Part shown: in pieces, positions 31,919 through 63,107 of the stretch
Numbering within the stretch: position 1 is the stretch's first letter
Layout: each line of letters opens with the position of its first letter
NCBI GenBank assembly: GCA_031426185.1
Contig: JANPKV010000389.1
Location: forward strand, 29,393 to 93,392
Direction of reading: 5' to 3'
From: Rhodobacterales bacterium
GTDB taxonomy: Bacteria > Pseudomonadota > Alphaproteobacteria > Rhodobacterales > Rhodobacteraceae
Length of the DNA: 64,000 bases
Position numbers and translations under genes: made by a program
Notes under the pieces: generated by a model
What the model saw: only the letters and a program-made list of their open reading frames with translations
Told to the model about the DNA's origin: nothing
Databases searched by the model: none

Positions 31919-31939
31919 TTCAATCTCCGGATTGGGGTT

Positions 31940-44429: not shown

Positions 44430-44725
44430 ACGACCCACCAGGTCGGATGGACCCCGACGCTTTCTGACCAGGCAGGGGCATCAATCAGGTAGCGGGCAAA
44501 TATGCCGACGCGGGTGGGGGCAGAAGATGCACACGGGTGAGGTCTCGATGAAAGATCCGGGTCCGATCTGCGTGGACCCTAGCAGCCTCTTTTCATGACG
44601 TTGACCCAGCACCCGAGGACTGGTTACCTGCGTCGGCTGAACCGTGGTCGGCAGCGCTTTTCCGGCAACAGACAGGACGCGACTGTGTGCTTGTCGGGGT
44701 CCGGCAGCGATCCGAAAGGAACACG

Positions 44726-46343: not shown

Positions 46344-48023
46344 CTAGGGGTTTGGCCAAAGGCGTGCGGCTTCCTCTGCGCTGTATCGGCCCAGGCGCAC
46401 ATCCTCGGCCACCAGCGCGGGGTCGCGGGCGGCGGGCGGGCCATAGCCGCCGCCGCCGGGGGTCCGCACCCGGACCCGATCGCCGGGTTTCAGCGCGATG
46501 TCCTGTGCCTTGGACAAATGCTCGGGGATAAGCGTGACACCATCACGGATCACCTCGACCCGGTTCACGGCACCATCTTGTCCCCCCAGCGCGCCCTGGG
46601 GGCCAACCCGGCCATGATCCATCACGAAACTTGCCCGTGCCTCGCCGCGTAAAAGCTCGATTTCGTAGTCCAGCCCGAACCCGCCGCGATGCTCGCCCGC
46701 CCCGCCAGAGCCTTCGTGCAGCGCGTAGCGGCGGTAGAGGACCGGATAGGTCTGCTCCATGATCTCAACGGGCGGAGCCTTGGAGATGCCGATGGTCGAG
46801 CACCCGTTGGCGATCCCGTCGCCCCCCGCAAAGCCGCCATAGCCACCGCCCGAGATCTGGTACATCACATAGTCGCGGCCCTTGTCCGGGTCGTGCCCGC
46901 CAAGGCCGAAATTGCCCGAGGTACCCGCCGGGGCGGCTGTCACCCGGTCGGGAAGCGCCTGCACCAAAGCAGCAAACACTGCCTCCGCAATGCGCTGGCT
47001 GACCTCGGCTGCGCACCCGCTGACCGGGCGGGGATATTGGGCATCGAGGAACGTACCCTCGATCCCGGTCACGGCCAGCGGCTCGAAAGCGCCCGCCGAG
47101 ATGGGCACATCCGGGAAGATATGCCGCATCGCGAGATAGACCGCCGACAGCGTCGTCGCGCGGACCGAGTTCATCGGGCCCAGGCAAGGCCGCGACGATC
47201 CGGTAAAATCAAACGTCAGGCCTTCTGCGCCCTTGGTCACGGTCAGCGCGATCGTCAGCGGTTCGTTCACGACGCCGTCGCTGTCCACGATGGCCCGTGA
47301 AAGGTAGGTGCCATCCGGGATCTGGCCGATCATCGCCCGCATCTGCAGCGCGGCCAGCCTTCGCATCTCGGCAATCGCCTCGGTCACCGTCGCATCGCCA
47401 TAACGGTCGAGAACCATGCCCAGCCGCTCTGCCCCGACCAGAAGCGCCGAGGCCTGGGCCTTCACATCACCGATCCGTTGTTCCGACACGCGGATGTTGG
47501 AGCAGATGATCTGGTAGATCTCCTGATCCAGCACGCCCGCCTTGAACAGCTTGACCGGCGGGATGCGCAGCCCCTCTTGCTCGGCGCTGATGGCACTTGC
47601 GGAAAAGCCGCCGGGCACCGCGCCCCCGGTATCTGGCCAATGTCCCGTGTTCGAAAGCCAGCAAAAGATCCGGCCATCGCGCCAGACCGGCATCGCAAAG
47701 CGCACATCCATCAGATGGGTGCCGCCAAGGTAGGGATCGTTGACGATGTAGATGTCGCCGGGTTGGGGCGGGGCGGTCAGACCCGCGGCGATCCGCTCCA
47801 GGATCGTGCGTGTCGAAAACTGCATGACGCCTACAAAGACCGGCAACCCCTTGGACCCTTGGGCGATCAGGCTGCCATCTGTCGCGGAGTAGATCCCGTC
47901 AGAACGGTCGTCCGCTTCGGCAATGACCGGCGAAAAGGCGGCGCGCGAGAAGGTCAGATCCATTTCATCACAGATCTGCTGCAGGCCTGCCTGGATGACC
48001 GCAAGGGTGACGGGGTCGATCAT
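46344..48023 (-). CDS. Hydantoinase B/oxoprolinase-family subunit (HyuB-like)
   Basis: 559 aa. MIDPVTLAVIQAGLQQICDEMDLTFSRAAFSPVIAEADDRSDG is the canonical Hydantoinase_B start. Confidence 0.92.
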   Translation of the reverse strand: MIDPVTLAVIQAGLQQICDEMDLTFSRAAFSPVIAEADDRSDGIYSATDGSLIAQGSKGLPVFVGVMQFSTRTILERIAAGLTAPPQPGDIYIVNDPYLGGTHLMDVRFAMPVWRDGRIFCWLSNTGHWPDTGGAVPGGFSASAISAEQEGLRIPPVKLFKAGVLDQEIYQIICSNIRVSEQRIGDVKAQASALLVGAERLGMVLDRYGDATVTEAIAEMRRLAALQMRAMIGQIPDGTYLSRAIVDSDGVVNEPLTIALTVTKGAEGLTFDFTGSSRPCLGPMNSVRATTLSAVYLAMRHIFPDVPISAGAFEPLAVTGIEGTFLDAQYPRPVSGCAAEVSQRIAEAVFAALVQALPDRVTAAPAGTSGNFGLGGHDPDKGRDYVMYQISGGGYGGFAGGDGIANGCSTIGISKAPPVEIMEQTYPVLYRRYALHEGSGGAGEHRGGFGLDYEIELLRGEARASFVMDHGRVGPQGALGGQDGAVNRVEVIRDGVTLIPEHLSKAQDIALKPGDRVRVRTPGGGGYGPPAARDPALVAEDVRLGRYSAEEAARLWPNP

Positions 48024-50038
48024 GCCGCGACCTCGATGATCAGATTGCCATCCCCGTCCGAGGTGACCCGCGCCCCGGGGTCCACCACGATGGTCGTATC
48101 CATTTGTTCAATGATGACAGGTCCTTTCAGATCGATCTTAAAGGGAAGGTGATCGCGCCAGTAAACCGGTGTCGTGTGCCAGCCGTCGAACCAGACCTTG
48201 CGGTGCGACGCGGGTTCGGCCCTGTCCCGCCGGCCCCTGGGGTCGATCAGCCGCGACAGATCCAAGGTTGGTCGCTCACCAATGACAGAGACATTGAGGT
48301 TCACCAGATTGGCGCGGATCGTCGGAAGATCGACACGGAACCTTGCGTGGTAGGCGGCCTCGAAAAGCCGCTGAAGCGCGTCACGGTCGGGCGTTGCCGA
48401 CGGCAGATGGACCCGCAGGAGATGCGTCTGCCCGACAAATTGCATGTCAGCGGAGTACTCTGCCCGAACCGAGGTCAGCGCAATCTTTTCAAGACCGATC
48501 AGCCGGCGACCTTCGGCTTCCTGCTCGCTCAGAACGCCATGGACATGAGCGATGTCGACCGCATCAAGAGGTCGGTTCAACGTACGCACGAAATCGTGCC
48601 GCAGGTCTGCCAACACGCAACCGAGTGCATTGGTGATGCCGGGACGGGCAGGGATCAAGACGGTAGGAACGTTCAGTTCTCTTGCCAAAGCGACGGCATG
48701 CAAGGGACCTGCGCCGCCAAAGGCGAACAGCGCAAAATCGCGCGGATCGGCGCCCATCGAGATCGAGACCATCCGGATCGCGCCGGACATATGGGTGTTG
48801 GCCAGACGGATGACGGCCTCGGCCGCGGCCTCGACTGACAGGCCCAGGGGGGCCGCGATCTGCGCTTGCATGGCTACAAAGGCCGGCTCCGCTGCCTGGC
48901 CGAAACGGCTCGCAGGCAAACGGCCAAGGATCAGGTTCGCGTCCGAAATCGTGACCCTGGTACCGCCCCGGCCATAGCAGACCGGCCCCGGGGTGGAGCC
49001 CGCGCTTTCCGGACCGACCCGCAGCATGCCGCCCGCGTCGATCCGAGCGATGGAGCCTCCGCCTGCGCCCACGGTGCGCACATCGACCATCGGCACATGG
49101 ATCGGCATGGCATATTCAACCTCGATCTCGTTCGAAACCGGCGCAACCCCGTTCCGGATCATCGCGACATCGGTCGAGGTGCCGCCCATGTCGTACGTCA
49201 AGAGATTGGACAACCCGGCCCGCCGCCCGGTCGCCACGGCGGCCATCACGCCCGAGGCAGGGCCGGACATGACCGTCTTCACCGCCTCTTTCGCGACATC
49301 CTTGGCAGCGACCATCCCGCCATTGCCATTCATCACCAACAAGTCGCGGGCATAGCCCTTGGCGGCCAGTTGATCGGCCAATCGGGCCACATAGCGCTCC
49401 AGCAAGGGTTGGACCGAGGCATTGACGGCAGCGGTCACCCCGCGTTCATACTCGCGGGATTCCGACAGAAGTTTATGCCCCAAGGTGATGTAATCATTGG
49501 GCCAAATGCGCTGGGCGATCTCGCCCGCGCGCAATTCATGCGCGGGGTTTGCATAAGCATGAAGAAAGTGGATCACCAAGGCCTCGCAGCCCGCATCGCA
49601 CAGCCGCATGATCGCCAGTCGAAGGCCATCCTCGTCCAGTGGGGTCAAAACCTGGCCTCGCGCGTCCATCCGCTCGGGCACTTCCAGCCGCAGGTCCCGG
49701 GGGATGATTGGGACAAAATGCCCTTTCATGCCATAGGCTTGCGGGCGGGTGCGGCGACCAAGCTCCAACACGTCGCGAAAGCCCATCGTCGTGATCAGCC
49801 CGGTCTTTGCAAGTCGCCGCTCCAGCACCGCATTGGTCGTGGTCGTCGTGCCATGAACGATCAGGTCAATTTCGGAAAGGTTTGCCTCAGCCTCGGCAAA
49901 GGCATTCAGCACGCCGCCTGACTGGTTCGGCAGCGTGGTCGGCACCTTGGCCAGCCGCACCGCACCGGTCGTGGTATCAAAGATCACCAGATCGGTGAAG
50001 GTTCCGCCTACGTCAACGCCTGCGACAAGCCCGGTCAT
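48020..50038 (-). CDS. Hydantoinase A/oxoprolinase-family subunit (HyuA-like, ATP-binding)
   Basis: 672 aa. VAGVDVGGTFTDLVIFD. 4-nt overlap with hyuB. Confidence 0.92.
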   Translation of the reverse strand: MTGLVAGVDVGGTFTDLVIFDTTTGAVRLAKVPTTLPNQSGGVLNAFAEAEANLSEIDLIVHGTTTTTNAVLERRLAKTGLITTMGFRDVLELGRRTRPQAYGMKGHFVPIIPRDLRLEVPERMDARGQVLTPLDEDGLRLAIMRLCDAGCEALVIHFLHAYANPAHELRAGEIAQRIWPNDYITLGHKLLSESREYERGVTAAVNASVQPLLERYVARLADQLAAKGYARDLLVMNGNGGMVAAKDVAKEAVKTVMSGPASGVMAAVATGRRAGLSNLLTYDMGGTSTDVAMIRNGVAPVSNEIEVEYAMPIHVPMVDVRTVGAGGGSIARIDAGGMLRVGPESAGSTPGPVCYGRGGTRVTISDANLILGRLPASRFGQAAEPAFVAMQAQIAAPLGLSVEAAAEAVIRLANTHMSGAIRMVSISMGADPRDFALFAFGGAGPLHAVALARELNVPTVLIPARPGITNALGCVLADLRHDFVRTLNRPLDAVDIAHVHGVLSEQEAEGRRLIGLEKIALTSVRAEYSADMQFVGQTHLLRVHLPSATPDRDALQRLFEAAYHARFRVDLPTIRANLVNLNVSVIGERPTLDLSRLIDPRGRRDRAEPASHRKVWFDGWHTTPVYWRDHLPFKIDLKGPVIIEQMDTTIVVDPGARVTSDGDGNLIIEVAA

Positions 50039-50737
50039 TCAGACACCCACATAGGTTCGAAATACATCAGCACCTGGCTTCAACTCCTTGGCAGAAAGGA
50101 TTTTCTCGATCCGCCCGCCCGTCATGAAGGCCACGGTATCCGCCAGCTTCAGCACCGCATCGACCCGCTGTTCGACAAGCACCACCGCGACGCCCTGCGC
50201 CTTCAGTGTCAGGACCGCGTCCTGGATGAGCGTGATCATCGAGGGCTGCAGCCCCTCGGTTGGCTCGTCAAGGAGCAGAACCTTCGGCGCAAGACACAGC
50301 GCGCGGGCAATCGCCAGCATCTGCTGCTCGCCCCCCGACAGGGTCTGGGCCGTCTGGGTCAGCCGTTCGCGCAGGCGGGGGAAAAGGGTCAGCACGTGGT
50401 CAAGAGTGGTCGGGTCATTGCCCTGAACAAGGCCGCCGACCGCAAGGTTTTCGGCCACGGTCAGCGGGCCGAACAGGCGGCGTCCCTGGGGGACGTAGGC
50501 CAGGCCGCGCTTTGCGATCTCATGCGCGGGCAGGCCTTGAAGCGCGACGCCGCTGAGGTGGACCGAACCGTCGCTTGCGGGGACAAGGCCCATGAGACAT
50601 TTGAGGAAGGTCGATTTTCCGACGCCGTTCCGGCCCATCAGACAGGTGATCTGGCCCGCCTCGGCCCGGAAATCGACCCCGCGCAGGACGGTCACCAGGC
50701 CATAGCCCGCCGTCAGGTCTTTGACCTCAAGCGCCAA
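50039..50737 (-). CDS. Branched-chain-type ABC transporter ATP-binding protein (LivF-like)
   Basis: Probable TTG start at 50737, overlapping the livG-like stop. LEVKDLTAGYG, GRNGVGKST, LSGGEQQMLAIARAL. Its stop abuts the hyuA start with no gap. Confidence 0.85.
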   Translation of the reverse strand: MALEVKDLTAGYGLVTVLRGVDFRAEAGQITCLMGRNGVGKSTFLKCLMGLVPASDGSVHLSGVALQGLPAHEIAKRGLAYVPQGRRLFGPLTVAENLAVGGLVQGNDPTTLDHVLTLFPRLRERLTQTAQTLSGGEQQMLAIARALCLAPKVLLLDEPTEGLQPSMITLIQDAVLTLKAQGVAVVLVEQRVDAVLKLADTVAFMTGGRIEKILSAKELKPGADVFRTYVGV

Positions 50738-51431
50738 GATAAGCCTCTTGGACCAAGGGGTTTGCGCGAATTTCTTCAGGCGTTCCGGTGGCGAGCACCT
50801 GGCCAAAGTTCAGCACCGTGATCCGGGTTGCAAGGTCCATCACCACCTCCATGTTGTGCTCGATGAGAAGGACCGTGGTTTCGGGAACAAGGCTTTCCAC
50901 CAACCGCTTGAAGCCCTCGATCTCGGACGCCGCAAGGCCTTGCGTGGGTTCATCCAGGATCAAGACCCGCGGGTTCAGCGCAAGGCCCATCGCAAGCTCC
51001 AAAAGTCGCTGGTGGCCGTAGGCAAGGGTCTGCGCTTCCTGCTCCTCCAGCCCCACAAGGCCCACGCGGGCCAGCGCGGCTTGCGTGCGACCGTGCAGGT
51101 CTTTTGCGCCCTGAGCCTGTACGGCAAGGGCCACGTTGTCAAAGACCGTCAGGCGCGGAAAGATCGAGGTGATCTGAAACGTGTAGGCGATGCCCTTCCT
51201 GACGCGGATATGGGCGGGAAGGTGGGTGATGTCCTCCGTCCCAAGGTGGATGGTTCCGGACTGGGCCATGCGGCGGCCAGAAAGCAGGCTTACAAACGTG
51301 GTCTTGCCCGCGCCGTTCGGTCCGATCAGCGCGTGGATCTCGCCTGCCATCAGGCTGAAATCGACGCCATCTACCGCCTTCAAGCCGCCAAAATGCAGCG
51401 TCAGGTCGTGCGTTTCGATCAGGGAAGCCAT
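50727..51431 (-). CDS. Branched-chain-type ABC transporter ATP-binding protein (LivG-like)
   Basis: ATG at 51431 gives MASLIETHDLTLHFGGLKAVDGV...GPNGAGKTT. The upstream part of the 468-aa track ORF is an artefact. Confidence 0.88.
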   Translation of the reverse strand: MASLIETHDLTLHFGGLKAVDGVDFSLMAGEIHALIGPNGAGKTTFVSLLSGRRMAQSGTIHLGTEDITHLPAHIRVRKGIAYTFQITSIFPRLTVFDNVALAVQAQGAKDLHGRTQAALARVGLVGLEEQEAQTLAYGHQRLLELAMGLALNPRVLILDEPTQGLAASEIEGFKRLVESLVPETTVLLIEHNMEVVMDLATRITVLNFGQVLATGTPEEIRANPLVQEAYLGA

Positions 51432-52351
51432 TTGAGCCACCTTTCCCGGATCGTACCCAGGATCCCCTTGGGGGCAAATAGGACGAGTACCACAAGGGCC
51501 AGCCCGACCAGGAACAGATAGGCCGTGGTAAGGCCGGAGGCGGCCTCGATCAGCGCGAACATCAATGCCGCGCCGAGAAGGGGGCCGATTGTCGTGCCCG
51601 CCCCACCCAACAGGACATAAAGCATCGGCAGGATCGAATACTGGATCGTCGTGAAGCTCGCGCCGACATAGCCAAAGAGGAGTGCATAAGCGGCCCCCGC
51701 GGCGCCTGCGTAAAGGCCCGAAATCGTCAGTGCGGCAAGCTTCACCGCAAAGGGATTGTAGCCCAGCATCCGTGACCGCTCTTCGTTCTCGCGCATCGCG
51801 ACCATGGTCCGGCCAAACGGTGAGCGGACGAGGGCGAGGCTGACCAGAAGGCCCAAGGCAAACAGCGCAAGCGCCGCGAAAAAGCGGGGCGTGTCGGTGG
51901 AAAGGTCGAACCCAGCAAATGTGCGACTGGCGGCAGCGAGGGTAAATCCCTCGTCCCCGCCGGTCGTGGGGGCAAAGTAAAGGATCGTCAGATACCCGGC
52001 TTGGGCGAACATGAGCGTCACGATCATGAAGCTGACCCCGGCGGTGCGCAGCGCCAAAAGCCCCACGGCGGCGGCCATCACACCGCCTGCAACGGTTCCG
52101 ACAATCAGCGCGGGTCCTGCGGAAAAGCCCCAAAGCTGCGCGGAAAGCCCCGCTGCATACATCCCCGCACCCAAAAGGAGCGCGTGGCCGAGCGACAGCA
52201 GCCCGGTATAGCCGAACGCGAGATTATAGCCCATGGCAAAGACCGCCAGAACCATGATCCGGGCAAGGTTGGTCGTGTGATAGGGCGACAGCAGGAACTG
52301 CGCGGCGAAAAGTACTGCAATCAAGACGAGGTGCAGGGCCCAGACTTTCAC
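51419..52351 (-). CDS. Branched-chain-type ABC transporter permease (LivM-like)
   Basis: 310 aa polytopic protein. 4-nt overlap with the livH-like gene. Confidence 0.88.
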   Translation of the reverse strand: MKVWALHLVLIAVLFAAQFLLSPYHTTNLARIMVLAVFAMGYNLAFGYTGLLSLGHALLLGAGMYAAGLSAQLWGFSAGPALIVGTVAGGVMAAAVGLLALRTAGVSFMIVTLMFAQAGYLTILYFAPTTGGDEGFTLAAASRTFAGFDLSTDTPRFFAALALFALGLLVSLALVRSPFGRTMVAMRENEERSRMLGYNPFAVKLAALTISGLYAGAAGAAYALLFGYVGASFTTIQYSILPMLYVLLGGAGTTIGPLLGAALMFALIEAASGLTTAYLFLVGLALVVLVLFAPKGILGTIRERWLKWLP

Positions 52352-53226
52352 GCTTTGGCTCCGAACAGGCCTTGCGGGCGAAAGACGAGGACCATGGCGA
52401 CCAGCAGCGTGGCGAGGATTTTGGCCAGCGTCGGCGCAAAGAACATCGAGATCACGCCGTCAGAAAGCCCGATCACGAGGGCGGCGATCAGGGTCCCGCG
52501 CAGGCTGCCCAAGCCACCGATGATCACCACGATGAAGGACAAAAGAAGCGTGTCGCCGCCCATCAGGTAATGCGCCTGCTGGATCGGCACGATCAGCACC
52601 CCCGCAAGGGCTGCAAGCCCGGCTCCCAAGGCGAAGGTGCCCATGTAGACCCGGTCAACATTGATCCCGAAGGCGCTTGCAGTGGTGCGGTCGACTTGCG
52701 TGGCGCGCATGATAAGGCCCGCCTTGGTGCGCGTGATGAAGGCCCAAAGGGCGAGAAGAACCACGCAGGCGGCGAAGACCACAAAAAGCTTGTAGCCGGA
52801 ATAGCCAAACCACGGCAGCTGGATGCGCCACTCGAACGGGGCCTGCACCGGGTTGGCGTTCGGGCCGTAAAGGCTAAGCGTCGCCTGCTCGATCATGTAG
52901 AGCAGCCCGATGGTGGCGACGATTGTCGCCTCGGGGTCATAGTTCAGCCGCTTCAGAATGAGCCCGTCCGTCGCGGCCGCCAAGGCGCCGACGACAAGAG
53001 GTGCCACGATCAGGGCCGCCATAAAGGCAAGCGCGGCGTGACCAGGAACATGGGCTGCGACAACCCAGGCCAGGACCGCGCCCAGCATGTAGAATGCTCC
53101 GTGCGCGACGTTGACGACGCGCATGACGCCGAACACGAGCGAGAGCCCGCTTGCGGCCAATGCAAGGACCGCAGCAGTCACAAGGCCCTCCATCAGGGCG
53201 AGGAGCAGGAAAGGTCCGAAAGCCAT
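52348..53226 (-). CDS. Branched-chain-type ABC transporter permease (LivH-like)
   Basis: 292 aa polytopic protein. GVMRVVNVAHGAFYMLGA is typical. Confidence 0.88.
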   Translation of the reverse strand: MAFGPFLLLALMEGLVTAAVLALAASGLSLVFGVMRVVNVAHGAFYMLGAVLAWVVAAHVPGHAALAFMAALIVAPLVVGALAAATDGLILKRLNYDPEATIVATIGLLYMIEQATLSLYGPNANPVQAPFEWRIQLPWFGYSGYKLFVVFAACVVLLALWAFITRTKAGLIMRATQVDRTTASAFGINVDRVYMGTFALGAGLAALAGVLIVPIQQAHYLMGGDTLLLSFIVVIIGGLGSLRGTLIAALVIGLSDGVISMFFAPTLAKILATLLVAMVLVFRPQGLFGAKA

Positions 53227-53313
53227 TTGGGTCCAACTAGTGGGAGGGTAGGCAGACTGCCCGCCCTGTGTGGCGCGGAATGGAGGGCGGGCAATCTGCC
53301 CGCCCTTTCGGCC

Positions 53314-54591: not shown

Positions 54592-54671
54592 GTTCGTCTC
54601 TCCACTGTTGCGGCCTCGTATCGGGCCCTTGATAGTCATGAGGCGTGCTGGCCTCGGAAAAGGTCTGTCGA

Positions 54672-56078
54672 TCACCCGGTTTTTGCGGTGGACAGCAGCC
54701 AAAGGCCCAAAACGGTATAGGCGACCATCAGGATGGTCATCGGCAGATGTGCGACGGGCCTTGCGTCGCGACCCGCCAGTTTCAGCACCAGAACCACCGC
54801 CAAGAGATGCGCGCCAAGGATCGCGGCGAACTGTGCCCCGTAGATCATGGGCATCACGCGGGGGTTGGTAACGAACCCGAACGAGACGTAGAACGGCGGC
54901 AGACCCAGAAAGCTGTCGCCGGTGAACAGCGGGTCATTCAGCGCGGCCAGCGTGTATTGGCCGGCGGTCAGCAGCATCATCAGGTAATGCGCCGCATGGT
55001 ACCCGGCGGCGATTGCAAGAAACGACAGCATGACCGGCCCGGCGGCAAACCCGCCCCCCATCCGTCGTCCCAACAAGATCGCCCCCAGGATCAGCGCCAG
55101 CGTCGACACCCAGACCGCCAGCAACCCGACGGTATTGATCCCCATCACCGCACTGCGCCCGGTCGGCTCCAACGGGTTTTGCCCGATCAGCGCTTGCCAC
55201 CAGAACGTCTCCATCAGCCCGTCAAAGGTCAGGGCGGCAAGCGCGAGGCTGACAAAGACCATCGCTGAAACAGTCAGTGGCGGCATCCCAAGCACCTGCG
55301 TGCCTGGCCACCCACGCATCAGACGGGCACGACGGCCGCTGATGTCCAGCCAAAGCGGGGAGACCTTGGCGATAAGGGCGAAAAGGAATGTAAGAAACTC
55401 ACCCTTTTCCAGCCACTCCTCGCCCTCAAGCGTGGCGAGAACAAAGATCACCAGCCAATAGCCCAAAGCCACCGAGGCAAGAACAGCCGGGTCGTCGGGG
55501 TAAAGCGAGACCAGTTGAAACCAGGCAAACCCGGCGTAGCCAATGACCGCAGGCCAGTGACCAAAGCGCGACAGCCCGATCTGACCGGTTCGGCTCAACA
55601 AAGTCCGTGCAATGCGAACCGGCGCGATCCACGGATTGATTGACCGCCAGACATTGCCAAAAAGCATCGACGCCAAAGGCACCGCAATCCACACACCCGT
55701 CCAGAAAACCAGCGTCATCAAGTTGTGCATCGGGTCCCGCTCGCCGAAAAAGCCGACAAAGAGGAGACCGAGGAAAATGAGAAAAGCCAGATAGGAGGTC
55801 AGGCTATCGGGCAGGATGACCGGTCGTTCCCAAACGAGTCGCTCTTCCATCGCAGGCATGCGGTGGGCGAGGGCGCCCAGGACGGCCGTCAGGGTAACGG
55901 TCAGCGCGGCGGCGGTAATGTAGTGGCCCGTGGGCAATGTCAGGATCACCGACGGGGGCAGGGCGCAGGCAAACGCCACGCCTGGAAGGATCAACGTCGC
56001 GGCACTCGTGGCACCAAGAATTCTGACGAATTCCCGGCAAAAGCCCTGACGGAGATTGGCGTGTGGCTTCACTTTCAA
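54672..56078 (-). CDS. Polytopic integral membrane protein of unknown family
   Basis: 468 aa with more than 10 hydrophobic segments. A TTG start overlaps the upstream stop (TTGA), so the start is uncertain. Confidence 0.65.
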   Translation of the reverse strand: MKVKPHANLRQGFCREFVRILGATSAATLILPGVAFACALPPSVILTLPTGHYITAAALTVTLTAVLGALAHRMPAMEERLVWERPVILPDSLTSYLAFLIFLGLLFVGFFGERDPMHNLMTLVFWTGVWIAVPLASMLFGNVWRSINPWIAPVRIARTLLSRTGQIGLSRFGHWPAVIGYAGFAWFQLVSLYPDDPAVLASVALGYWLVIFVLATLEGEEWLEKGEFLTFLFALIAKVSPLWLDISGRRARLMRGWPGTQVLGMPPLTVSAMVFVSLALAALTFDGLMETFWWQALIGQNPLEPTGRSAVMGINTVGLLAVWVSTLALILGAILLGRRMGGGFAAGPVMLSFLAIAAGYHAAHYLMMLLTAGQYTLAALNDPLFTGDSFLGLPPFYVSFGFVTNPRVMPMIYGAQFAAILGAHLLAVVLVLKLAGRDARPVAHLPMTILMVAYTVLGLWLLSTAKTG

Positions 56079-56656
56079 CGCAACCCATCCTCCCCTTTCG
56101 CCTGGTTGATCTCCAACCCTCCCATCCGCGAATGCACACGCCCGCCGCGGGCCATGGCAAGCGCAAACAGAACTTCATGACTGCGCGGCGCGTCGGAGCA
56201 GGCGACCGTGATGACGTCAAACCGTGACCGGACATAGGCCGCGTTCAGATGCCCAAGCGGGATGTCCAGCGTCGCGCCCAGGCCTCCAACCTTCATCGTG
56301 CTTGGCACGATCGCACGGCATTCACCCAGTCGGTCGCGCATGCCGTAACCGCCTGCGACATGCCAAAGCGCGCCATGCTCGCTTTCACCGGCTTCGCCGA
56401 CGATGGCCCCCTTGCCATAGGCATCGATGCCCGCCCGACCGCCCAATGCGGCAACAAGACGGTCCGTCAGGTCCAGTGCGAGAGGCTTCAGCGCGTCCAT
56501 CGCGAACTGCAGATCGGGCGTGTAGCGCCCCGCAAAAGGGTTGGCGCAGATCGCATAAATCGCGCCCCGAACCGGCGCAGGCGCTACGACAGGCCCGCCC
56601 TCGTGCAGGATCTCCTCGATCTGCACCACGATCTTGCGCAACGCGAACTCAGCCAC
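56075..56656 (-). CDS. Amino-acid-synthesis family protein (AA_synth/DUF1185-like)
   Basis: 193 aa. EGGPVVAPAPVRGAIYAICANPFAGRY...GKGAIVGEAGESEHGALWH fits that family as I recall it. Confidence 0.7.
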   Translation of the reverse strand: MAEFALRKIVVQIEEILHEGGPVVAPAPVRGAIYAICANPFAGRYTPDLQFAMDALKPLALDLTDRLVAALGGRAGIDAYGKGAIVGEAGESEHGALWHVAGGYGMRDRLGECRAIVPSTMKVGGLGATLDIPLGHLNAAYVRSRFDVITVACSDAPRSHEVLFALAMARGGRVHSRMGGLEINQAKGEDGLR

Positions 56657-57605
56657 CGGTCACCCCCAAAGCGGAAATCCCGCTCACCCTGGTTTCATCC
56701 TGCAAGAAAAGTGCCGCCCCTTCAATCAGGCCGCGCGCCCGGAACCCTTCCGCAGCGGCAAGGCCCGCATCGAGCGCTTGCGCCCGGTCATCTGCCGAAA
56801 TCGGCGGCACCTCGACCGTGACCCGCCGGTCGCCAAGATCGCTGTCCGATTGCAGGTCCCGCGCCGGACGCCGCAGGATGCCCGGATGATCAACGTCAAC
56901 CGCATTCGCGATCATCGTCGCGGCGGCGTCCGCCATCGCCGCCGTCCGCGCGAGCACCGTCACCGCATCGGCGATACCAAACGAAAAACTGCGCCCCCGC
57001 CAGCCCGAAGTCGCAATTCCCCGGACCGGATCGCTTGCGCGCAGTGTCACCCGGTCAAGCCCACCGGTGACCGCCAAAGCGCAGGTCAGGCTTTCATCAG
57101 GGCCGAGCCAGAGCGCGATGTCCCCGCCATTGTTGGCATAGGCTCGCACTATCCCCGGGCCGACCAGCGCCGACAAGACATGCTCGGCCACGGCTCCCGC
57201 GACCGCCGCCATGGGGGTGAGGAAGGCAGGCCGGAACGGGGCCACTGCCGCTGTCATGCATCGGGCGATCACGCCTTCGACCCCGGCGCCGTCGGTGCGC
57301 AGGGCGGGAAGCTCGGCCACCAGTTCTTCTAGCACCGTCGCAAATCGCGCGGCCCCCCGCGCAAAGCCCGCCCGGACGGCTGAAGCCTCGCCAAATGCTT
57401 CGGCCACGATGTCGATCGGCCCGTGTTGCAAATGAAGGCGGCCATCGGGCAGGAGGGCCGCCATCGCGCTGCTTTTGGCGTAAGCATCGCGCCTTTTGAC
57501 CAGCGCGGGCCTTTTGGCCAAAGCAGCAAGGGCCAGGCCGGGAACTTGCGGCTGTGCGCGCCAGTTGGGCTGTGTGGTTTCAGAGGCGCTTGTCACTGCG
57601 GCCAT
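56649..57605 (-). CDS. UPF0280-family (ApbE-like fold) protein
   Basis: LLPDGRLHLQHGPIDIVAEAFG is the family-typical N-terminal block. An alternative ATG at 57464 would give a shorter protein. Confidence 0.65.
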   Translation of the reverse strand: MAAVTSASETTQPNWRAQPQVPGLALAALAKRPALVKRRDAYAKSSAMAALLPDGRLHLQHGPIDIVAEAFGEASAVRAGFARGAARFATVLEELVAELPALRTDGAGVEGVIARCMTAAVAPFRPAFLTPMAAVAGAVAEHVLSALVGPGIVRAYANNGGDIALWLGPDESLTCALAVTGGLDRVTLRASDPVRGIATSGWRGRSFSFGIADAVTVLARTAAMADAAATMIANAVDVDHPGILRRPARDLQSDSDLGDRRVTVEVPPISADDRAQALDAGLAAAEGFRARGLIEGAALFLQDETRVSGISALGVTGG

Positions 57606-59026
57606 GGGACGACCCTTGCGCTTGTCGGGTATTCCCCACCCTCGATCACCGACTGGTCCAGCGTGCGAATGCTTTCTTCGTGTCCGCCCATTGCCAGGTA
57701 AGCCTCACGCGGCAAGGTGAATTCCAAAGGTGCGACAAGCGCCGGGGTCGGCACGTAACCGAAAGCGCCTTTCGGCAGACGGGTCACGTCCACCATGAAA
57801 GTGATTCCGCCGCCCGGCCAGACGAACGTCTCGGCCCCGCCGCTGGTCAGCCGGGTGACCTGACCCTGCACCGACTGCGTCAGCCGCACCGGATTTCTCG
57901 TCACCCCCGCCCGCAGACTGCCCCCCGCGCCGCCCATGAAAAGGACCGTGCAGAGCGAGGGCTCGCAGTTTTCCGCGATCAGCTCGACCGATTTCCGCAA
58001 GCTTTCCGGCAGCGGCTGCGGCACCGGCTGCAACTGCGTATCGAGCACATAATAGGCGTATTGCTCGCCCGTGGTGGACACCATCAAGAGCCGCAGCCCC
58101 GGCCGCGCGCCTTTCTTCGGGTTCCAGTCGCCCAGTATCTCCAGCGGATTGGTCAGCCGGGTTCCGCCCCAGCCTTGCCCCGGCTCCGAGACGCGGAAAT
58201 AGCGGCCCGGCGTGGATCGGTGGCCCTTGATCTTGATGCCCGTCGGCTCCCAACCGATGACCTTTCCGGCCTGATGCTCGCTCACGACGCCGGTAATGTG
58301 GTCATCGACCACCACCACCTCGTCCACCAAGCCCTGCCACTGCACGGCAAACATGCCGATCGTGGCCGATCCGCAGCCGACCCGCATCCGACGTTCCTGC
58401 ACCCCATCCACGATGGGCGCAGATCCCGCCTGCACAATCACGCGGCTGCCGCCTTCGATCTCCATCTCAACCGCTTCGCCGTTGCAAAGCGCCAGCATGG
58501 CGGCGCACGTGACCCTGCCTTCCGCCTTGCTGCCGCCCGTCAGGTGATGGACGCCCCCAAGCGACAGCATTTGCGAGCCGTATTCTGCGGTGGTCACATG
58601 GCCAACGGGCTCGCCCTGAACCCGGACGACCGCCCCTTCGCTCCCCAGAAAGCGGTCGGTGTCGACCTTCACCTTGACCCCGCAATAGGAAAAGATCGCT
58701 TCGGTCACGACGGTGATCATGTCCGCGCCATCTATCCGCGAGGACACGATAAAGGGCGCGGGCTTGTAGTCGGGATAGGTCGTGCCTGCGCCGATCCCGG
58801 TGACAAAGGCATCGGCCGGCACGGGCGAGCCGTCCCAGTCCCGCAGGGCAAAAGGGACCACCCGACCTTTCGCTTCGACGGTATGCGACAGCATCACAAC
58901 CGGATCGGTCCGCACGATCCGGCCACCCTCATTGGCATAGCGGTCGCAGGCCCCGGTCTGGCCGGGCGCGATGTAGCACATCACCGGGCAGGCATCGCAG
59001 CGGATCTTTTCGGGCGCGTCGGTCAC
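57593..59026 (-). CDS. Cys-rich Fe-S protein of the family annotated as 6-hydroxynicotinate reductase (Hnr-like)
   Basis: GTG at 59026 lies 5 nt after GGAGGG. MTDAPEKIRCDACPVMCYIAPGQTGACDRY carries a CxxCxxxC...C cluster. The family assignment is from memory. Confidence 0.6.
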   Translation of the reverse strand: MTDAPEKIRCDACPVMCYIAPGQTGACDRYANEGGRIVRTDPVVMLSHTVEAKGRVVPFALRDWDGSPVPADAFVTGIGAGTTYPDYKPAPFIVSSRIDGADMITVVTEAIFSYCGVKVKVDTDRFLGSEGAVVRVQGEPVGHVTTAEYGSQMLSLGGVHHLTGGSKAEGRVTCAAMLALCNGEAVEMEIEGGSRVIVQAGSAPIVDGVQERRMRVGCGSATIGMFAVQWQGLVDEVVVVDDHITGVVSEHQAGKVIGWEPTGIKIKGHRSTPGRYFRVSEPGQGWGGTRLTNPLEILGDWNPKKGARPGLRLLMVSTTGEQYAYYVLDTQLQPVPQPLPESLRKSVELIAENCEPSLCTVLFMGGAGGSLRAGVTRNPVRLTQSVQGQVTRLTSGGAETFVWPGGGITFMVDVTRLPKGAFGYVPTPALVAPLEFTLPREAYLAMGGHEESIRTLDQSVIEGGEYPTSARVVPWPQ

Positions 59027-59099
59027 TTTGACCCTCCGCCGGGGGCCGGCCCCCGGACCCCCGGGATATTTGCGGACAGGAGATGAGGCTTTGTGTGCA

Positions 59100-61763
59100 T
59101 CATGACCTGCTTGTGATGGCGGCGCGCAGGCGGTGTGGCAGCGCGGGGACTTGCGTGATCTCGACGCCCGTCGCATGGCGGATCGCGTTCAGGATGGCCG
59201 GCGCGGTCGGGATCAGCACATGCTCGCCCAAGCCCTTGGCTCCGAATGGACCTTCGGGATCTGGCACCTCGATCAACAGGCTTTCGATGGGGGGCACGTC
59301 GCCGAATGTGGGGATCAGATAGTCGTGCAGGTTCTCTGTCCGGTTGGGCAGGTACTCTTCCATCAGCGCAAGGCCGATGCCCTGCGCAATGCCGCCCTCG
59401 ATCTGGCCCCGGGCGAGCATGGGATTGATCGCGCGGCCAAGGTCATGGGCGGCGGTGATCTTCAGCAGGCGGACCGTGCCCAGCGTCTGGTCTACGTCCA
59501 GTTCGACCAACTGTGCGCCATAGCCGTAAACGGCGTAAGGCGTGCCCTGGCCGTTTGCATCAAGCCTTGTGGTGGGTGGATCATAAGTCGCCTCGGCCGA
59601 CAGTGCGAGGCCGTGGGGATCACGGGGCAGGCCGGCAAGGTCGATCCGGGTTGACGTCGCCCCGGCGCGAACAACGAGCGAGGCAGCCTCAAGCGCCAGA
59701 ACTGCGTCTTGGCCTGCATTGGCCCGGCGCAGGATCGCAGTGCGTAAAGCCTCTGCCGCCGCCTTGGCAGCCCGCCCCGAGACAAAGGTCTGCCGACTGG
59801 CCGAGGATTTTCCGGCATCGGGGGTCAGCGCGGTATCAGGCCCGATCAGGCGAAAGGTCGCCAGCGGCAGGCCCAGGGCTTCTGCCGCGATCTGGGCGAT
59901 GACGGTGTTTGAGCCCTGTCCGATATCCGTGGCACCCTGATGCAGGACCACCTCGCCCTGATGCGATATCCCGATGCGGATGGTCGACGGGTTCGGCAAC
60001 GCGGTGTTTCCGCAGCCATACCAGCATGACGCGACGCCGACACCCCGCCCCGGGCCGGCCTCGGCCAGAGCGCGCACCCAATGTGGGCGCAGGGCAGTCA
60101 GGCATTCGTGGATGCCCGTCGCCCGCAGGGCTTGCCCAGTTGCCGTGACATCGCCATCGCGCAAGGCGTTCAGGATCCGGAACTCCAGCCGGTCGATTTT
60201 GGCCTTTTCGGCCAGCCGGTCATAGAGCGTCTCTTGCCAAAGCGCCCCTTGCGGCACGCCAAACCCCCGGAACGCTCCGGAAACGGGGCCATGGGTGTGG
60301 ATCGCCCGCGCCTTGGCCATGACGTTCGGTGTGAGATAGGGCCCTGATACATGCACCGGAACGCGGTTCGCCACCGTCGGGCCCCAGCTGGAATAGGCCC
60401 CGGTGTTGAACAGGCCCTCGAATTCCACCGCTGTGATCTTGCCATGGGCATCGCATCCGATCCGCCCCTGCATTTCCGCCGGATGGCGCTTGGTGGTCGA
60501 GGTCATGCTTTCCTGGCGCGAATAGACCATCCGGCTGGGCCGACCGGTATTCAGCGTCACCAGTCCGATCAAAGGCTGCAGCGAAATGTCGAGTTTGGAT
60601 CCGAACCCGCCACCCACCGCCGACGGGATGATCCTGACCCGCTCCATCGGCAGCCCAAGGATCGCTGCCGTGTCTTCGCGGTCCATCGCGGGGGCCTGCG
60701 TGCAGGCGCGGATGACAAGCGTGTCACCGTCCATCCATGCAGCACCTGCTTCGGGCTCGATATAGGCATGTTCGACAAAGGCCGTGGTCATGGTTCCGGT
60801 GACGACATGCGCGCTTGTTGCCAGCGCTGCGGCGGCATCGCCCTTGATCACACGCCCTTCGATCAAAAGATTGCCGGGGCGACCCGGATGCAAGGGTTCG
60901 GCCCCTTCCGCCTCTTGCGGCGTGGTCACGGCCGGCAGGGGCTCCCAATGGACGGGAAAGCCGGAAAGGTCGGGCTCCGTCCCCGGCTCAAACGCCACCA
61001 AAGCCACGCATTCCCCCCGGAACCGGGCGGGGGACGGCGCAATTGCGGGCTGGTCGGCGAAGGGTGGGATGACGGAAAACGCATTGCGACCGGGGATATC
61101 GGCCGCGGTAAAGATCGCCGCAACGCCAGGGCGACTGCGGAACGCCTGAAGCGCGCCGATCTGAAAGGCCGCGTGAGCATAAGGCGAGCGGATGGCTTTC
61201 ACGACCAGCGCGCCTGTGGGCCACTCGTCGGCGCCAAAGCTGTCACCGGCAACCTTGGCCGCGCCATCCAGCCGCTGGACAGAAGCCCCAACCCCGCCCT
61301 CCGACACCACCGTCTCAGCGCCTTGTCCTGCCGAAACGACGGCCGCGATGATGCTGCGATAGCCCGTGCAGCGGCATAGGACGCCGCCAAGCGCGGTTTC
61401 CACCTCCTTGCTCGAAGGCTGGGCGTTCCGCGTAAGCAACTCGGCCGCCGTCAGCAGCATTCCCGGGGTGCATATCCCGCATTGCGCCGCACCATGGGCC
61501 TGGAAACTGGCGCGCAGGCGGACGAGTTCCGGCGTCGCCGCTTCGATGGTCGTCACGTGGCGCCCGGCGACGCGGGTGGCAGGGGTGAGGCAGGCGCAGA
61601 CCGCTTCACCGTCCAAAAGCACGGTACAGGCCCCGCAATCGCCCGCGTCGCAGCCAACTTTGGTGCCGGTCTTGCCCAGCCGCTCGCGCAGGGTTTCCGA
61701 CAGCCGCTCGGTCGGAGGGGCGTCCACCGTCACGCGTGCATTGTTCAGCGTGAAGGAGATCAT
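59100..61763 (-). CDS. Xanthine-dehydrogenase-family hydroxylase, fused [2Fe-2S] and molybdopterin-binding subunits
   Basis: ATG at 61763 overlaps the FAD-subunit stop (ATGA). MISFTLNN...GCDAGDCGACTVLLDG...CGICTPG...CRCTGY are the two 2Fe-2S motifs. These are followed directly by the a/b-hammerhead and Moco domains (VQRLDGAAKVAG...). Confidence 0.9.
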   Translation of the reverse strand: MISFTLNNARVTVDAPPTERLSETLRERLGKTGTKVGCDAGDCGACTVLLDGEAVCACLTPATRVAGRHVTTIEAATPELVRLRASFQAHGAAQCGICTPGMLLTAAELLTRNAQPSSKEVETALGGVLCRCTGYRSIIAAVVSAGQGAETVVSEGGVGASVQRLDGAAKVAGDSFGADEWPTGALVVKAIRSPYAHAAFQIGALQAFRSRPGVAAIFTAADIPGRNAFSVIPPFADQPAIAPSPARFRGECVALVAFEPGTEPDLSGFPVHWEPLPAVTTPQEAEGAEPLHPGRPGNLLIEGRVIKGDAAAALATSAHVVTGTMTTAFVEHAYIEPEAGAAWMDGDTLVIRACTQAPAMDREDTAAILGLPMERVRIIPSAVGGGFGSKLDISLQPLIGLVTLNTGRPSRMVYSRQESMTSTTKRHPAEMQGRIGCDAHGKITAVEFEGLFNTGAYSSWGPTVANRVPVHVSGPYLTPNVMAKARAIHTHGPVSGAFRGFGVPQGALWQETLYDRLAEKAKIDRLEFRILNALRDGDVTATGQALRATGIHECLTALRPHWVRALAEAGPGRGVGVASCWYGCGNTALPNPSTIRIGISHQGEVVLHQGATDIGQGSNTVIAQIAAEALGLPLATFRLIGPDTALTPDAGKSSASRQTFVSGRAAKAAAEALRTAILRRANAGQDAVLALEAASLVVRAGATSTRIDLAGLPRDPHGLALSAEATYDPPTTRLDANGQGTPYAVYGYGAQLVELDVDQTLGTVRLLKITAAHDLGRAINPMLARGQIEGGIAQGIGLALMEEYLPNRTENLHDYLIPTFGDVPPIESLLIEVPDPEGPFGAKGLGEHVLIPTAPAILNAIRHATGVEITQVPALPHRLRAAITSRS

Positions 61764-62587
61764 CCAAGCGCCTCCATCACCGCACGGCGGACCAATTCCA
61801 CTGCGGCCTCGTGCCGGTAAGCCGACGTCGCCCTGACGTCGTCGATAGGTGCAAGTGCAACCTGCACGTCCGGGGCGGAAATCCTGCCAACTGCATCGGC
61901 CACAGGACAGCCGCGCAGCGCCGCTTCGACCAGGGGCAACCGGGCCGCAACCGCCGAACAGGACCCGACCGCCACCGCAGCCTCGGACACGCGCCCGCGC
62001 TCGACCACAAGCCGCGCCGCCACCATGGCAATGGAGATGACCAGATGGGTCCGCGCGCCAAGTTTCACAAACGCCGACCTCCCGCGCAAGGCACTGTCGG
62101 GGATCACGACGGCAGCCAATATCTCGCCCGGTGCCAGCGCGATCTTTCGCGGGCCAAGGAGGAAATCCGTGATGGCAAGCCGTCGGGTTCCGGTTGCCGA
62201 AAGCAGCTCGACTTCTGCATCCATTGCCAGAAGCGGCGGCACCCCGTCGGCAGCGGGCGAGGCGTTGCAGAGATTGCCGCCAAGCGTGCCCGCATTCTGT
62301 ATCTGCCGCCCGCCGACCTGAAGTGCTGCCTGCTGAAGCGCGCGGCAGGCCTCGGGCAGATCGGCGGCAGCAATCACCGACCAGGGCGTCGCAGCACCGA
62401 TCCGCAGACCGCCGCCTCGCCTGATCCCGGCGAAACCAGGCAAAGCCGTCACATCCAGCAAAGATCCTGCGAGGCACGACCCGGCACCAGGGTAAAGATC
62501 CGTCCCACCCGCCAGCACCCGCCAGCCGCCCCCGGCCATCAGCCGCAGCGCATCTGTCACCGTGTCGGGGCGGGCATAGTCCGGCAT
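61760..62587 (-). CDS. Molybdopterin dehydrogenase FAD-binding subunit (CoxM/XdhB-like)
   Basis: MPDYARPDTVTDALRLMA...LAGGTDLYP...IQNAGTLGGNLCNASPAADG. Alternative ATG at 62605. Confidence 0.88.
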   Translation of the reverse strand: MPDYARPDTVTDALRLMAGGGWRVLAGGTDLYPGAGSCLAGSLLDVTALPGFAGIRRGGGLRIGAATPWSVIAAADLPEACRALQQAALQVGGRQIQNAGTLGGNLCNASPAADGVPPLLAMDAEVELLSATGTRRLAITDFLLGPRKIALAPGEILAAVVIPDSALRGRSAFVKLGARTHLVISIAMVAARLVVERGRVSEAAVAVGSCSAVAARLPLVEAALRGCPVADAVGRISAPDVQVALAPIDDVRATSAYRHEAAVELVRRAVMEALG

Positions 62588-62687
62588 CACTGGCCCTGAA
62601 TTCATTTGTATAGAAACAAGGTTGCGGCCAAGTTTTGCGCCTGTCAACAGTCTTGCAAGGCCGAACCACAGCGCGTATCGAACTTGG

Positions 62688-63107
62688 ATGAATGGGGCTG
62701 AGCCTTATCGCCTTGATGACCAGATCGGCTTTGTCCTGCGGCGCGTGACGCAGCGACATCTGGCGATCTTTGCCGCCGCCATCCCCGAGGTCACCACCAC
62801 ACAGTTCGCGGTCCTTGCCAGGCTCTTGGAAACCGGGCCGCAATCGCAAAACCATCTTGGCCGAGCCACTGCGATGGATGCGGCGACGATAAAGGGCGTT
62901 GTGGGCAGGCTGGCAAAGCTTGGCTATGTCGCCACGGCGGCTGACCCGGACGACCGTCGTCGCCTGACGGTTACCCTGACCGATGTCGGAGCGGCGCTCT
63001 TTGAAGCGCGGGCGGCAACCGCGCTTCAGGTGTCGGCGGACACTCTGGCCCCCTTGTCACCCGAGGAACGTATCACGCTCAAGGCCCTCTTGGCCCGCCT
63101 GGCCTGA
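62688..63107 (+). CDS. MarR-family transcriptional regulator
   Basis: ATG at 62688. YRLDDQIGFVLRRVTQRH...TTTQFAVLARLLETGPQSQNHLGRATAMDAATIKGVVGRL...DRRRLTVTLT. Divergent from the hydroxylase operon. Confidence 0.88.
   Translation: MNGAEPYRLDDQIGFVLRRVTQRHLAIFAAAIPEVTTTQFAVLARLLETGPQSQNHLGRATAMDAATIKGVVGRLAKLGYVATAADPDDRRRLTVTLTDVGAALFEARAATALQVSADTLAPLSPEERITLKALLARLA

Follow-up and report, generated by a model that had tools for sequence, protein, structure and literature searches.

A thirteen-gene array in a Rhodobacterales bacterium is probably a nicotinate operon in which HyuAB most likely replaces enamidase

A stretch of DNA from a Rhodobacterales bacterium (64,000 nucleotides of contig JANPKV010000389.1, assembly GCA_031426185.1; hereafter the window) was analysed with respect to a packed array of 13 minus-strand genes at positions 46344-62587. 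It is considered probable that the array is one MarR-controlled operon for the uptake and first catabolic steps of nicotinate, following the 1,4,5,6-tetrahydro-6-oxonicotinate (THON) route with ATP-driven opening of the ring. In the proposed pathway, a Liv-type ATP-binding cassette (ABC) importer, comprising a binding protein, two permeases and two ATPases and associated with a polytopic membrane protein, would take up nicotinate. The flavin adenine dinucleotide (FAD) subunit and the fused iron-sulfur (FeS)/molybdenum cofactor (Moco) subunit of a hydroxylase would then hydroxylate C6 to give 6-hydroxynicotinate, which a 6-hydroxynicotinate reductase (Hnr) lacking a ferredoxin domain would reduce to THON. 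UPF0280 may install a covalent flavin in Hnr, and the DUF1185/AA_synth protein would be an obligate companion of the Hnr step. Finally, HyuAB, standing in for the metal-dependent enamidase (Ena) of Eubacterium barkeri and most other Hnr clusters, would hydrolyse the cyclic amide of THON, spending ATP, to the enamine of 2-formylglutarate, which loses ammonia; later steps would be encoded elsewhere than in the operon.

The pattern that carries this reading emerged from comparison with related loci. A genome scan with Hnr returned 80 loci with Hnr identities of 65-89%, the nearest being Tabrizicola, Rhodobacter and Paracoccaceae. The counts given below refer to two sets of loci. The first comprises 56 from the window's alphaproteobacterial clade, counting the window itself, in which Hnr is flanked by at least 9 kb on either side; the second comprises 23 metagenomic loci with flanks of at least 3 kb each, in which Hnr carries a ferredoxin domain (Fer4-type). 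Gene calling based on GC content at third codon positions (GC3) produced many antisense artefacts in high-GC loci and was used solely to find recurrent extra genes. Across the genome-scan loci the core order FAD, FeS/Moco, Hnr, UPF0280, AA_synth was almost invariant, and in many Rhodobacterales it continues just as it does in the window, with membrane protein, binding protein, LivHMGF and HyuAB. Among the 56 related loci, UPF0280 was present in all, the hydroxylase in 53, AA_synth in 51 and MarR in 43. HyuA or HyuB was found in 38 and an enamidase-like gene in 2; no locus had both, and 16 had neither within 10 kb of Hnr. The Fer4-type loci displayed the reverse, with Ena in 22 of 23 and HyuAB in none, together with UPF0280 in 21 and AA_synth in 20, the canonical order being aldehyde dehydrogenase, FeS, FAD, Mo, Ena, Hnr, UPF0280 and AA_synth.

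Since Ena and HyuAB are mutually exclusive both between and within Hnr lineages, HyuAB is most likely an ATP-dependent THON lactamase replacing enamidase, and the distribution has the appearance of a non-orthologous displacement in which HyuAB took over from enamidase inside the ferredoxin-less alphaproteobacterial clade. This lends comparative support to the third step proposed in an earlier note on this DNA, in which an ATP-dependent lactamase opens the ring. The chemistry would also fit, THON being a cyclic amide and the HyuAB family hydrolysing cyclic amides with ATP. The HyuA-type subunit (48020..50038, minus strand; Hydant_A_N, Hydantoinase_A and Hydant_A_C) and the HyuB-type subunit (46344..48023, minus strand; Hydantoinase_B, E = 2.5e-155) are adjacent, and their genes overlap by 4 nt. 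In a PDB search the nearest solved structure to HyuB was 6YRA_B (E = 5e-74), and 6YRA and an N-methylhydantoinase are the nearest solved relatives. When tblastn was run with two enamidase-like queries, one of them validated against the E. barkeri enamidase structure 2VUN, no enamidase was found in the 64-kb window. The literature search returned no paper assigning HyuAB to a nicotinate pathway, and the literature searched held no report of THON, a six-membered enamide lactam, as substrate of the hydantoinase/oxoprolinase family.

The exchange can be observed most clearly among near-equivalent roseobacter clusters, which carry Ena in Sulfitobacter and HyuAB in Pseudosulfitobacter and Sagittula. 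The Sulfitobacter amidohydrolase matches 2VUN over its full length (E = 1e-106), and on the Sulfitobacter and Comamonadaceae plasmids an "amidohydrolase" is present and HyuAB is absent. In Pseudosulfitobacter and Sagittula, the amidohydrolase is missing from clusters that otherwise comprise Fpr, Hnr, UPF0280, two AA_synth genes, a Rieske gene, an ABC transporter and MarR, and in its stead HyuA and HyuB follow the FAD and Moco genes in translational coupling. Overall, the link of HyuAB to the pathway persists in at least five architectures. The pair may follow LivF, follow AA_synth directly (AA_synth, HyuA, HyuB in Pleomorphomonas, Neorhizobium and loci L014, L023 and L043), be coupled to the gene for the Moco subunit, or lie upstream of Hnr (HyuA, HyuB, Hnr in Methylobacterium); in several loci placed in Rhizobiales-type genera or among unclassified alphaproteobacterial metagenome-assembled genomes, it flanks the core in divergent or convergent orientation. 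The linked HyuAB proteins represent one orthologous set with 62-91% identity to those of the window (HyuA 62-88%, HyuB 71-91% in Hnr-linked clusters); a Neorhizobium paralogue reaches just 40%.

The Hnr homologue (57593..59026, minus strand) was assigned from family names and alignment. Its start is most likely GTG 59026, because a GGAGG ribosome-binding site precedes it and a 100%-identical database protein of 477 residues (P0001) has that length; ATG 59176 is less likely. More than 8000 homologues were found, the best 120 at 82-100% identity, and those with names are called 6-hydroxynicotinate reductase by NCBI, JGI, Prokka and DFAST alike. An exhaustive search of representatives at 50% identity added relatives of about 510 residues at 35-46% identity, with some 60 extra N-terminal residues, several of them likewise named 6-hydroxynicotinate reductase. 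Against proteins named Hnr, E values ranged from 1e-113 to 1e-90 over about 450 aligned residues, and in a 52-sequence alignment the window protein showed 37-47% full-length identity to members with a Fer4 domain. The open reading frame (ORF) therefore does match Hnr homologues, in agreement with the second step of the earlier note, in which an Hnr-like reductase saturates the ring. What that note missed is the missing N-terminal 2x[4Fe-4S] ferredoxin domain: in P0126 and P0133, the two proteins scanned, the 4Fe-4S ferredoxin domain forms the N-terminal segment, and no such domain was found in the window's Hnr, whose alignment begins at about residue 60 of the Fer4 members. Five cysteines (20, 23, 27, 37 and 228, numbered on a 487-residue query) are invariant in the 52 sequences, the first four in a CxxCxxxC...C motif and Cys228 within an invariant G-C-G-S-A-(S/T) segment. 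The identity across the genome-scan loci is unusually high. Despite the size of the family, no match was obtained in local copies of Pfam and NCBIfam or among PDB sequences, and an AlphaFold2 model (mean predicted local distance difference test, pLDDT, 83) gave no significant PDB fold match, so that the structure offered no guide to the mechanism. A small barrel in the model weakly resembles the C-terminal domain of the glycine-cleavage T protein. Since Hnr has no ferredoxin domain and hnr lies directly after the hydroxylase genes, the hydroxylase might hand its two electrons directly to Hnr, so that conversion of nicotinate to THON would be a redox-neutral net hydration. In 10 of the 56 loci a ferredoxin-NADP reductase gene lies beside the cluster.

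UPF0280 (56649..57605, minus strand) passes NF003322 at 351 bits against a cutoff of 290 and adjoins Hnr throughout the related loci and in nearly all Fer4-type loci, as counted above. The family is called "ApbE superfamily" by JGI and PF27030 "AbpE_bact" in newer Pfam. In an AlphaFold2 model (pLDDT 82.5) residues 1-43 are disordered, for which reason the true start may be ATG 57464. A Foldseek search with this model returned 2O34 and then solely flavin transferases of the ApbE/Ftp/FmnB type at ranks 3-41, with a probability of about 1 for most; a profile search against PDB sequences reached 2O34 and did not reach ApbE. The Hnr of E. barkeri reportedly carries a covalently bound flavin. On the basis of the ApbE-like fold, this flavin and the companionship of UPF0280 with Hnr in both deep lineages, it is tentatively proposed that UPF0280 could flavinylate Hnr, a suggestion we hold to be possible and somewhat short of probable. 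The resemblance to ApbE/Ftp FAD:protein FMN transferases concerns the fold of the model (after 2O34) and the family name; in contrast, a significant match to Pfam ApbE is missing, and the genomic context points to a protein of the cytoplasm, ApbE itself being periplasmic.

The AA_synth/DUF1185 protein (56075..56656, minus strand; PF06684, E = 9e-62) matches 3BYQ and 2QTP in the PDB, and DUF1185 has been described as a hexamer whose fold resembles that of Bacillus chorismate mutase (PMC2954203). It is linked to Hnr in both the related and the Fer4-type loci at the frequencies stated. In the structural-genomics paper on BB2672 and SPO0826, a role in "amino-acid metabolism" was deduced from the presence nearby of MarR-type regulators and of genes annotated "branched-chain amino-acid ABC transporter" (PMC2954203). 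Because these genes are similar to the Liv-type transporter and MarR found in the Hnr cluster, and SPO0831 is an XDH (xanthine dehydrogenase)-family subunit (PMC4809877), the label "amino acid synthesis" given to the family is probably an artefact of context. The protein could be a partner subunit or an enzyme processing the enamine/imine, in line with its chorismate-mutase/YjgF-like fold. Two AA_synth paralogues were observed in L082 (Neorhizobium), L083, L085, L089 and L091, the Sulfitobacter copies being about 49% identical; the window and most close relatives have the first type only, and the two Fer4-type loci checked (L086, L088) the second only. A Rieske gene annotated "aromatic ring-hydroxylating dioxygenase subunit alpha", absent from the window, adjoins ABC transporter genes in three roseobacter loci, following MarR in L085 (16064-17131) and the second AA_synth in L089 (18559-19629) and L091 (18561-19631).

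It should be noted that several points weigh against the proposed pathway. The NCBIfam equivalogs of caprolactamase (CapAB; NF050156 and NF050157) were matched by HyuA and HyuB at 486 and 302 bits against cutoffs of 1000; the alpha subunit is the best NCBIfam match of HyuA. With scores so far below these cutoffs, the substrate of HyuAB is not readable from homology. Linkage is not universal, and since 16 of the 56 loci have neither HyuAB nor Ena close to Hnr, another enzyme could open the ring. The connection of the window's Hnr to the E. barkeri enzyme would run through a published comparison and annotation names rather than a direct alignment, as the profile search brought up no protein named as that of E. 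barkeri; for a Bradyrhizobiaceae member, 42% identity to it is reported (PMC3511419). Neither an Fpr gene nor a ferredoxin gene that might supply a reductant to the ferredoxin-less Hnr is present in the window. Regarding the role of UPF0280, TM-scores to ApbE are modest (0.3-0.5), and the comparison with Pfam ApbE (PF02424) is insignificant (E = 2.5; 8 bits against a cutoff of 25.6). Finally, the three gaps of 73-87 nt in the array could hold internal promoters missed by a sigma-70 scan.

The strongest alternative accepts a nicotinate/THON operon and lets HyuAB act on some other lactam or cyclic amide, such as 5-oxoproline or a side product, while an unlinked enamidase or hydrolase, or AA_synth itself, opens the ring. 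The loci with neither gene nearby demonstrate that a ring-opening gene can be unlinked, HyuAB reaches no equivalog cutoff, and AA_synth is a near-universal companion without an assigned function. These points are opposed by the lack of any co-occurrence of Ena and HyuAB in the 56 loci, by the absence of HyuAB from all 23 Fer4-type loci, by the swap between otherwise equivalent roseobacter clusters, and by the translational coupling of HyuAB to genes of the pathway, which recurs in several independent arrangements and includes direct coupling to the gene of the Moco subunit. AA_synth occurs in Ena-type and HyuAB-type clusters alike and is for that reason no substitute for either. This alternative is accordingly regarded as unlikely.

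Regarding the substrate, the hydroxylase consists of a nicotinate dehydrogenase-like FAD subunit (61760..62587, minus strand; FAD_binding_5 and CO_deh_flav_C), which overlaps the next gene by 4 nt, and a fused 2x[2Fe-2S] and molybdopterin-binding subunit (59100..61763, minus strand; Fer2, Fer2_2, Ald_Xan_dh_C and MoCoBD_1/2). Together these domains constitute a three-cofactor hydroxylase of the XDH family. In the PDB search, the fused protein scored 385 bits with the Desulfovibrio gigas aldehyde oxidoreductase (AOR), which has the same fused architecture, and 239.5, 210.7 and 105.3 bits with the split chains of E. barkeri nicotinate dehydrogenase 3HRD, the sum of which allows a rough comparison only; the hydroxylase as a whole matches 3HRD chains A, B and D. 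In the plasmid loci L082 and L083, a hydroxylase of the NicA/NicB type takes the place of the XDH-type FAD and FeS/Moco genes, with a protein of 1185 residues in Neorhizobium and the Comamonadaceae plasmid. The first step of the earlier note, installation of the oxo group beside the ring nitrogen by a Mo-hydroxylase, thereby gains comparative support. Moreover, a PncA nicotinamidase (NF008623, 221 bits against a cutoff of 174) adjoins the core in 13 of the 56 loci. Given PncA adjacency and the NicA/NicB-type swap, in addition to the homologies of Hnr and Ena, nicotinate itself is very probably the substrate, and not just a "nicotinate-like" compound as in the earlier note.

It is somewhat less probable again than the previous alternative that another N-heterocyclic carboxylate (picolinate, isonicotinate, a pyrazine- or pyrimidine-carboxylate, or a substituted nicotinate), and not nicotinate, is the physiological substrate and is processed by the same sequence of hydroxylation, reduction and hydrolysis. 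The specificity of Mo-hydroxylases is unreadable from sequence, the best single PDB match is AOR and not nicotinate dehydrogenase, no NCBIfam equivalog is reached, and some roseobacter variants have an extra Rieske oxygenase gene. Against such a substrate stand the PncA equivalog beside the core, the NicAB-type replacement, the very close enamidase homologue in sister clusters, and the high identity of Hnr across the genome loci, which argues for a single conserved substrate. Furthermore, strain SG-6C, which has the cluster, mineralises nicotinate via 6-hydroxynicotinate, and Azorhizobium caulinodans is cited as a user of the THON route (PMC3511419).

With nicotinate as the substrate, the subsequent route may be glimpsed in related clusters. 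The aldehyde dehydrogenase of Fer4-type clusters passes the model of the CoA-acylating methylmalonate-semialdehyde dehydrogenase (MMSDH), suggesting that 2-formylglutarate is probably converted there to glutaryl-CoA by an MMSDH-like enzyme; a route via glutarate has been cited for Azorhizobium (PMC3511419). In the window there is no homologue of the MMSDH-like aldehyde dehydrogenase, PncA, Fpr or, as described, enamidase, and no glutarate-pathway gene was recognised among the upstream genes checked, by Pfam for 29-42 kb and by ORF inspection only for the rest.

The array itself is compact. ORF inspection showed that all 13 genes are co-directional with intact frames, in the order FAD, FeS/Moco, Hnr, UPF0280, AA_synth, membrane protein, binding protein, two permeases, two ATPases, HyuA and HyuB from 62587 to 46344, and Pfam and NCBIfam recovered the named domains. 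The packed array described in the earlier note was thus borne out, and recomputed junction spacings (-4, +73, -13, -8, -4, +80, +87, -4, -13, -11, 0 and -4 nt in gene order) agree with its overlaps, zero spacing and gaps under 90 nt. Genes overlap or abut at 9 of the 12 junctions, LivF and HyuA being separated by no nucleotide, and the three gaps are located at the Moco/Hnr, membrane/binding-protein and binding-protein/LivH borders. The internal promoters that could have split the array received no support, a sigma-70 promoter and terminator scan giving no excess of either inside it. Dozens of Rhodobacterales genomes share this gene order, as does a plasmid of Fuscovulum ytuae (strain YMD61), where the 13 genes and MarR are arranged identically and each carries a PGAP name. 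By their layout and recurrence the 13 genes would form a real operon, presumably read as a single transcript. A chance juxtaposition of three units (hydroxylase/Hnr, Liv transporter and HyuAB) with their own promoters and functions, to which the three gaps and the lack of the transporter block in L014, L020, L023 and L043 might point, is very improbable in view of the recurrent gene order, the modules that stay linked after rearrangement in other lineages, the abutting LivF and HyuA, the scan without promoter or terminator excess inside the array, and a hairpin after the binding-protein gene without a T-tract.

Two GC-rich hairpins were observed in the gaps. One, GGGCGGGCAGATTGCCCGCCC, lies with a related second copy in 53227-53313, 3' of the binding-protein gene, with a predicted energy of -47.5 kcal/mol; the other, CCCGGGGGTCCGGGGGCCGGCCCCCGG, lies in 59027-59099, just upstream of the Hnr ribosome-binding site. 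No T-tract follows either. We read the former, a strong hairpin, as the type of stem-loop common after binding-protein genes of ABC operons and not as a terminator.

Divergent from the operon lies a MarR-family, NicR-like regulator gene (62688..63107, plus strand; MarR_2 and MarR). Its start is most likely ATG 62688, giving 139 residues and leaving a divergent intergenic region of 100 bp; this length is comparable to that of the Fuscovulum MarR gene of 420 nt (about 139 residues). A homologue with 55% identity is annotated NicR in Pleomorphomonas, and the analogy to NicR drawn in the earlier note holds. Alignment of 41 MarR/FAD intergenic regions revealed a near-invariant TTGACAG and a conserved imperfect palindrome with the consensus TGTTTGYATRCAAACA. 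In the window, a putative operon promoter (62619..62647, minus strand) comprises -35 TTGACA (62647-62642), a 17-nt spacer and a weak -10 CAACCT (62624-62619), on account of which a consensus promoter scanner did not call it. The palindrome, a putative MarR operator, follows just downstream of the -10 (62603..62618, minus strand). Searched as a pattern, TGTTTGYATRCAAACA gave a single window match with 3 mismatches, and since at least one match occurred in 19 of 100 shuffles, the match is not significant alone. Promoter and palindrome would together represent the classic layout of a MarR repressor site over an operon promoter. A candidate promoter of marR itself is formed by TTGCAA (62652-62657) and TATCGA (62676-62681), and GCAAG and GATA motifs recur in the aligned loci; as its -10 ends about 7 nt before ATG 62688, a near-leaderless marR mRNA is suggested.

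The transport genes comprise a polytopic membrane protein with 10-12 transmembrane segments predicted by hydropathy analysis (54672..56078), a periplasmic solute-binding protein of the Liv/Peripla_BP_6 type (53314..54591; E = 1.8e-48), whose start is corrected to ATG 54591, LivH-like (52348-53226) and LivM-like (51419-52351) permeases with BPD_transp_2, and LivG-like (50727-51431) and LivF-like (50039-50737) ATPases with ABC_tran, all on the minus strand. Pfam also matched BCA_ABC_TP_C within the block 50039..53226. The membrane protein had no match in local copies of Pfam or NCBIfam. Because a binding-protein gene is also present in 29 of the 30 loci having it, it would appear to belong to the uptake module; a homologue with 32% identity adjoins livK in Neorhizobium. 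The binding protein is presumed to be the nicotinate receptor.

A proteobacterial nicotinate cluster of the THON route is already known from Alhapel et al. 2006 and Shettigar et al. 2012, with the loci A. caulinodans AZC_2790-2804, Bradyrhizobium japonicum blr3818-3830, Rhodopseudomonas palustris RPB_1658-1671 and strain SG-6C; the Bradyrhizobiaceae Hnr lies in this cluster, which is conserved in all four (PMC3511419). The earlier note, which knew of no characterised operon so composed, overstated the novelty, as the core is on record and the HyuAB variant alone appears undescribed. The window shares with the known clusters an XDH-family hydroxylase, an Hnr homologue, a Liv-type transporter, UPF0280, AA_synth and aerobic alphaproteobacterial hosts. 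The known ones, however, are described with the first three E. barkeri enzymes, enamidase included, whereas HyuAB is found in the window; the operon belongs with them and lacks one defining feature, enamidase. With the E. barkeri fermentation cluster (NdhFSLM, Hnr, Ena) it has in common, as proposed, the first two reactions and their intermediate, besides the 3HRD matches and the Hnr family. It differs in that FeS and Moco domains are fused in one polypeptide instead of NdhS with split NdhL/NdhM, in the missing N-terminal domain of Hnr, and in the proposed ring opening by HyuAB with ATP in place of enamidase. Among the window genes checked, none was homologous to the later fermentation genes (B12 mutase and others). 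CapAB/6YRA, N-methylhydantoinase HyuAB and 5-oxoprolinase resemble the window pair in their two-subunit A/B architecture, full-length domain matches and, as proposed, cyclic-amide hydrolysis, but the equivalog scores imply that the pair are not CapAB orthologues. Compared with the Pseudomonas putida nic cluster (NicAB, NicC, NicX, NicD, NicF, NicE, NicR), a MarR-type NicR-like repressor and the first step to 6-hydroxynicotinate are shared, and the NicAB-type hydroxylase also appears in sister clusters in place of the XDH type. The aerobic 2,5-dihydroxypyridine route is not that of the window: none of the 13 genes has a NicC/NicX-like monooxygenase or dioxygenase domain, the rest of the window having had no dedicated search.

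At the tail, a fusion of MocA (NTP_transf_3; Moco cytidylyltransferase) and XdhC (XdhC_CoxI, XdhC_C) at 44687..46273 on the plus strand converges on HyuB, as the earlier note had it; TIGR03310 gave 88 bits, below its cutoff. A role as maturase of the hydroxylase is plausible. None of the other loci examined had the gene adjoining the cluster, although most of these loci stop short of the end of HyuB, and it was rejected as a conserved part of the cluster. Elsewhere in the window, the plus-strand region 343-27084 holds a set resembling a type VI secretion cluster, judged by ORF sizes and N-terminal sequences only: a TssB-like ORF of 168 residues (1423-1929) and ORFs of 495 (1933-3420), 895 (8326-11013), 700 (11032-13134) and 1204 residues (18303-21917). 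By the same means, an ORF of 237 residues (22615-23328) was taken for a phosphatase and a minus-strand ORF of 713 residues (23333-25474) for a Ser/Thr kinase. An unrelated minus-strand block at 29037-38807 carries a MalK-type ABC ATPase, an NMT1/THI5-like protein, a NIF3 protein, a permease, an SBP_bac_1 binding protein, a flavodoxin-like FMN reductase, a FAD_binding_4 oxidase and a creatininase-family amidohydrolase (37983-38807).

As described above, the interpretation of the earlier note is essentially right and less new than claimed, and the practical importance is moderate, since the logic of the pathway was known already and nothing is overturned. Nicotinate (vitamin B3) is an abundant N-heterocycle; the enzymology of the THON route is known mainly from one anaerobe, and Alphaproteobacteria of soil, freshwater and the sea hold thousands of members of this Hnr family. 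It is rather doubtful that three propositions hold jointly, namely that the HyuAB clade would be an ATP-dependent THON lactamase displacing enamidase in aerobic Alphaproteobacteria, UPF0280 (COG2122) a cytoplasmic ApbE-like transferase installing the flavin of Hnr, and DUF1185/AA_synth an obligatory component of the Hnr pathway, not of amino-acid synthesis. The operon nevertheless gives testable functions to UPF0280 and DUF1185. If HyuAB opens the ring, this would be a clear non-orthologous displacement of a metal amidohydrolase by an ATP-driven lactamase and would extend a family of biocatalytic interest (caprolactam, hydantoins, oxoproline) to a new class of substrate. This would also correct automatic annotations such as "hydantoinase", "acetophenone carboxylase", "branched-chain amino acid transporter" and "amino acid synthesis".

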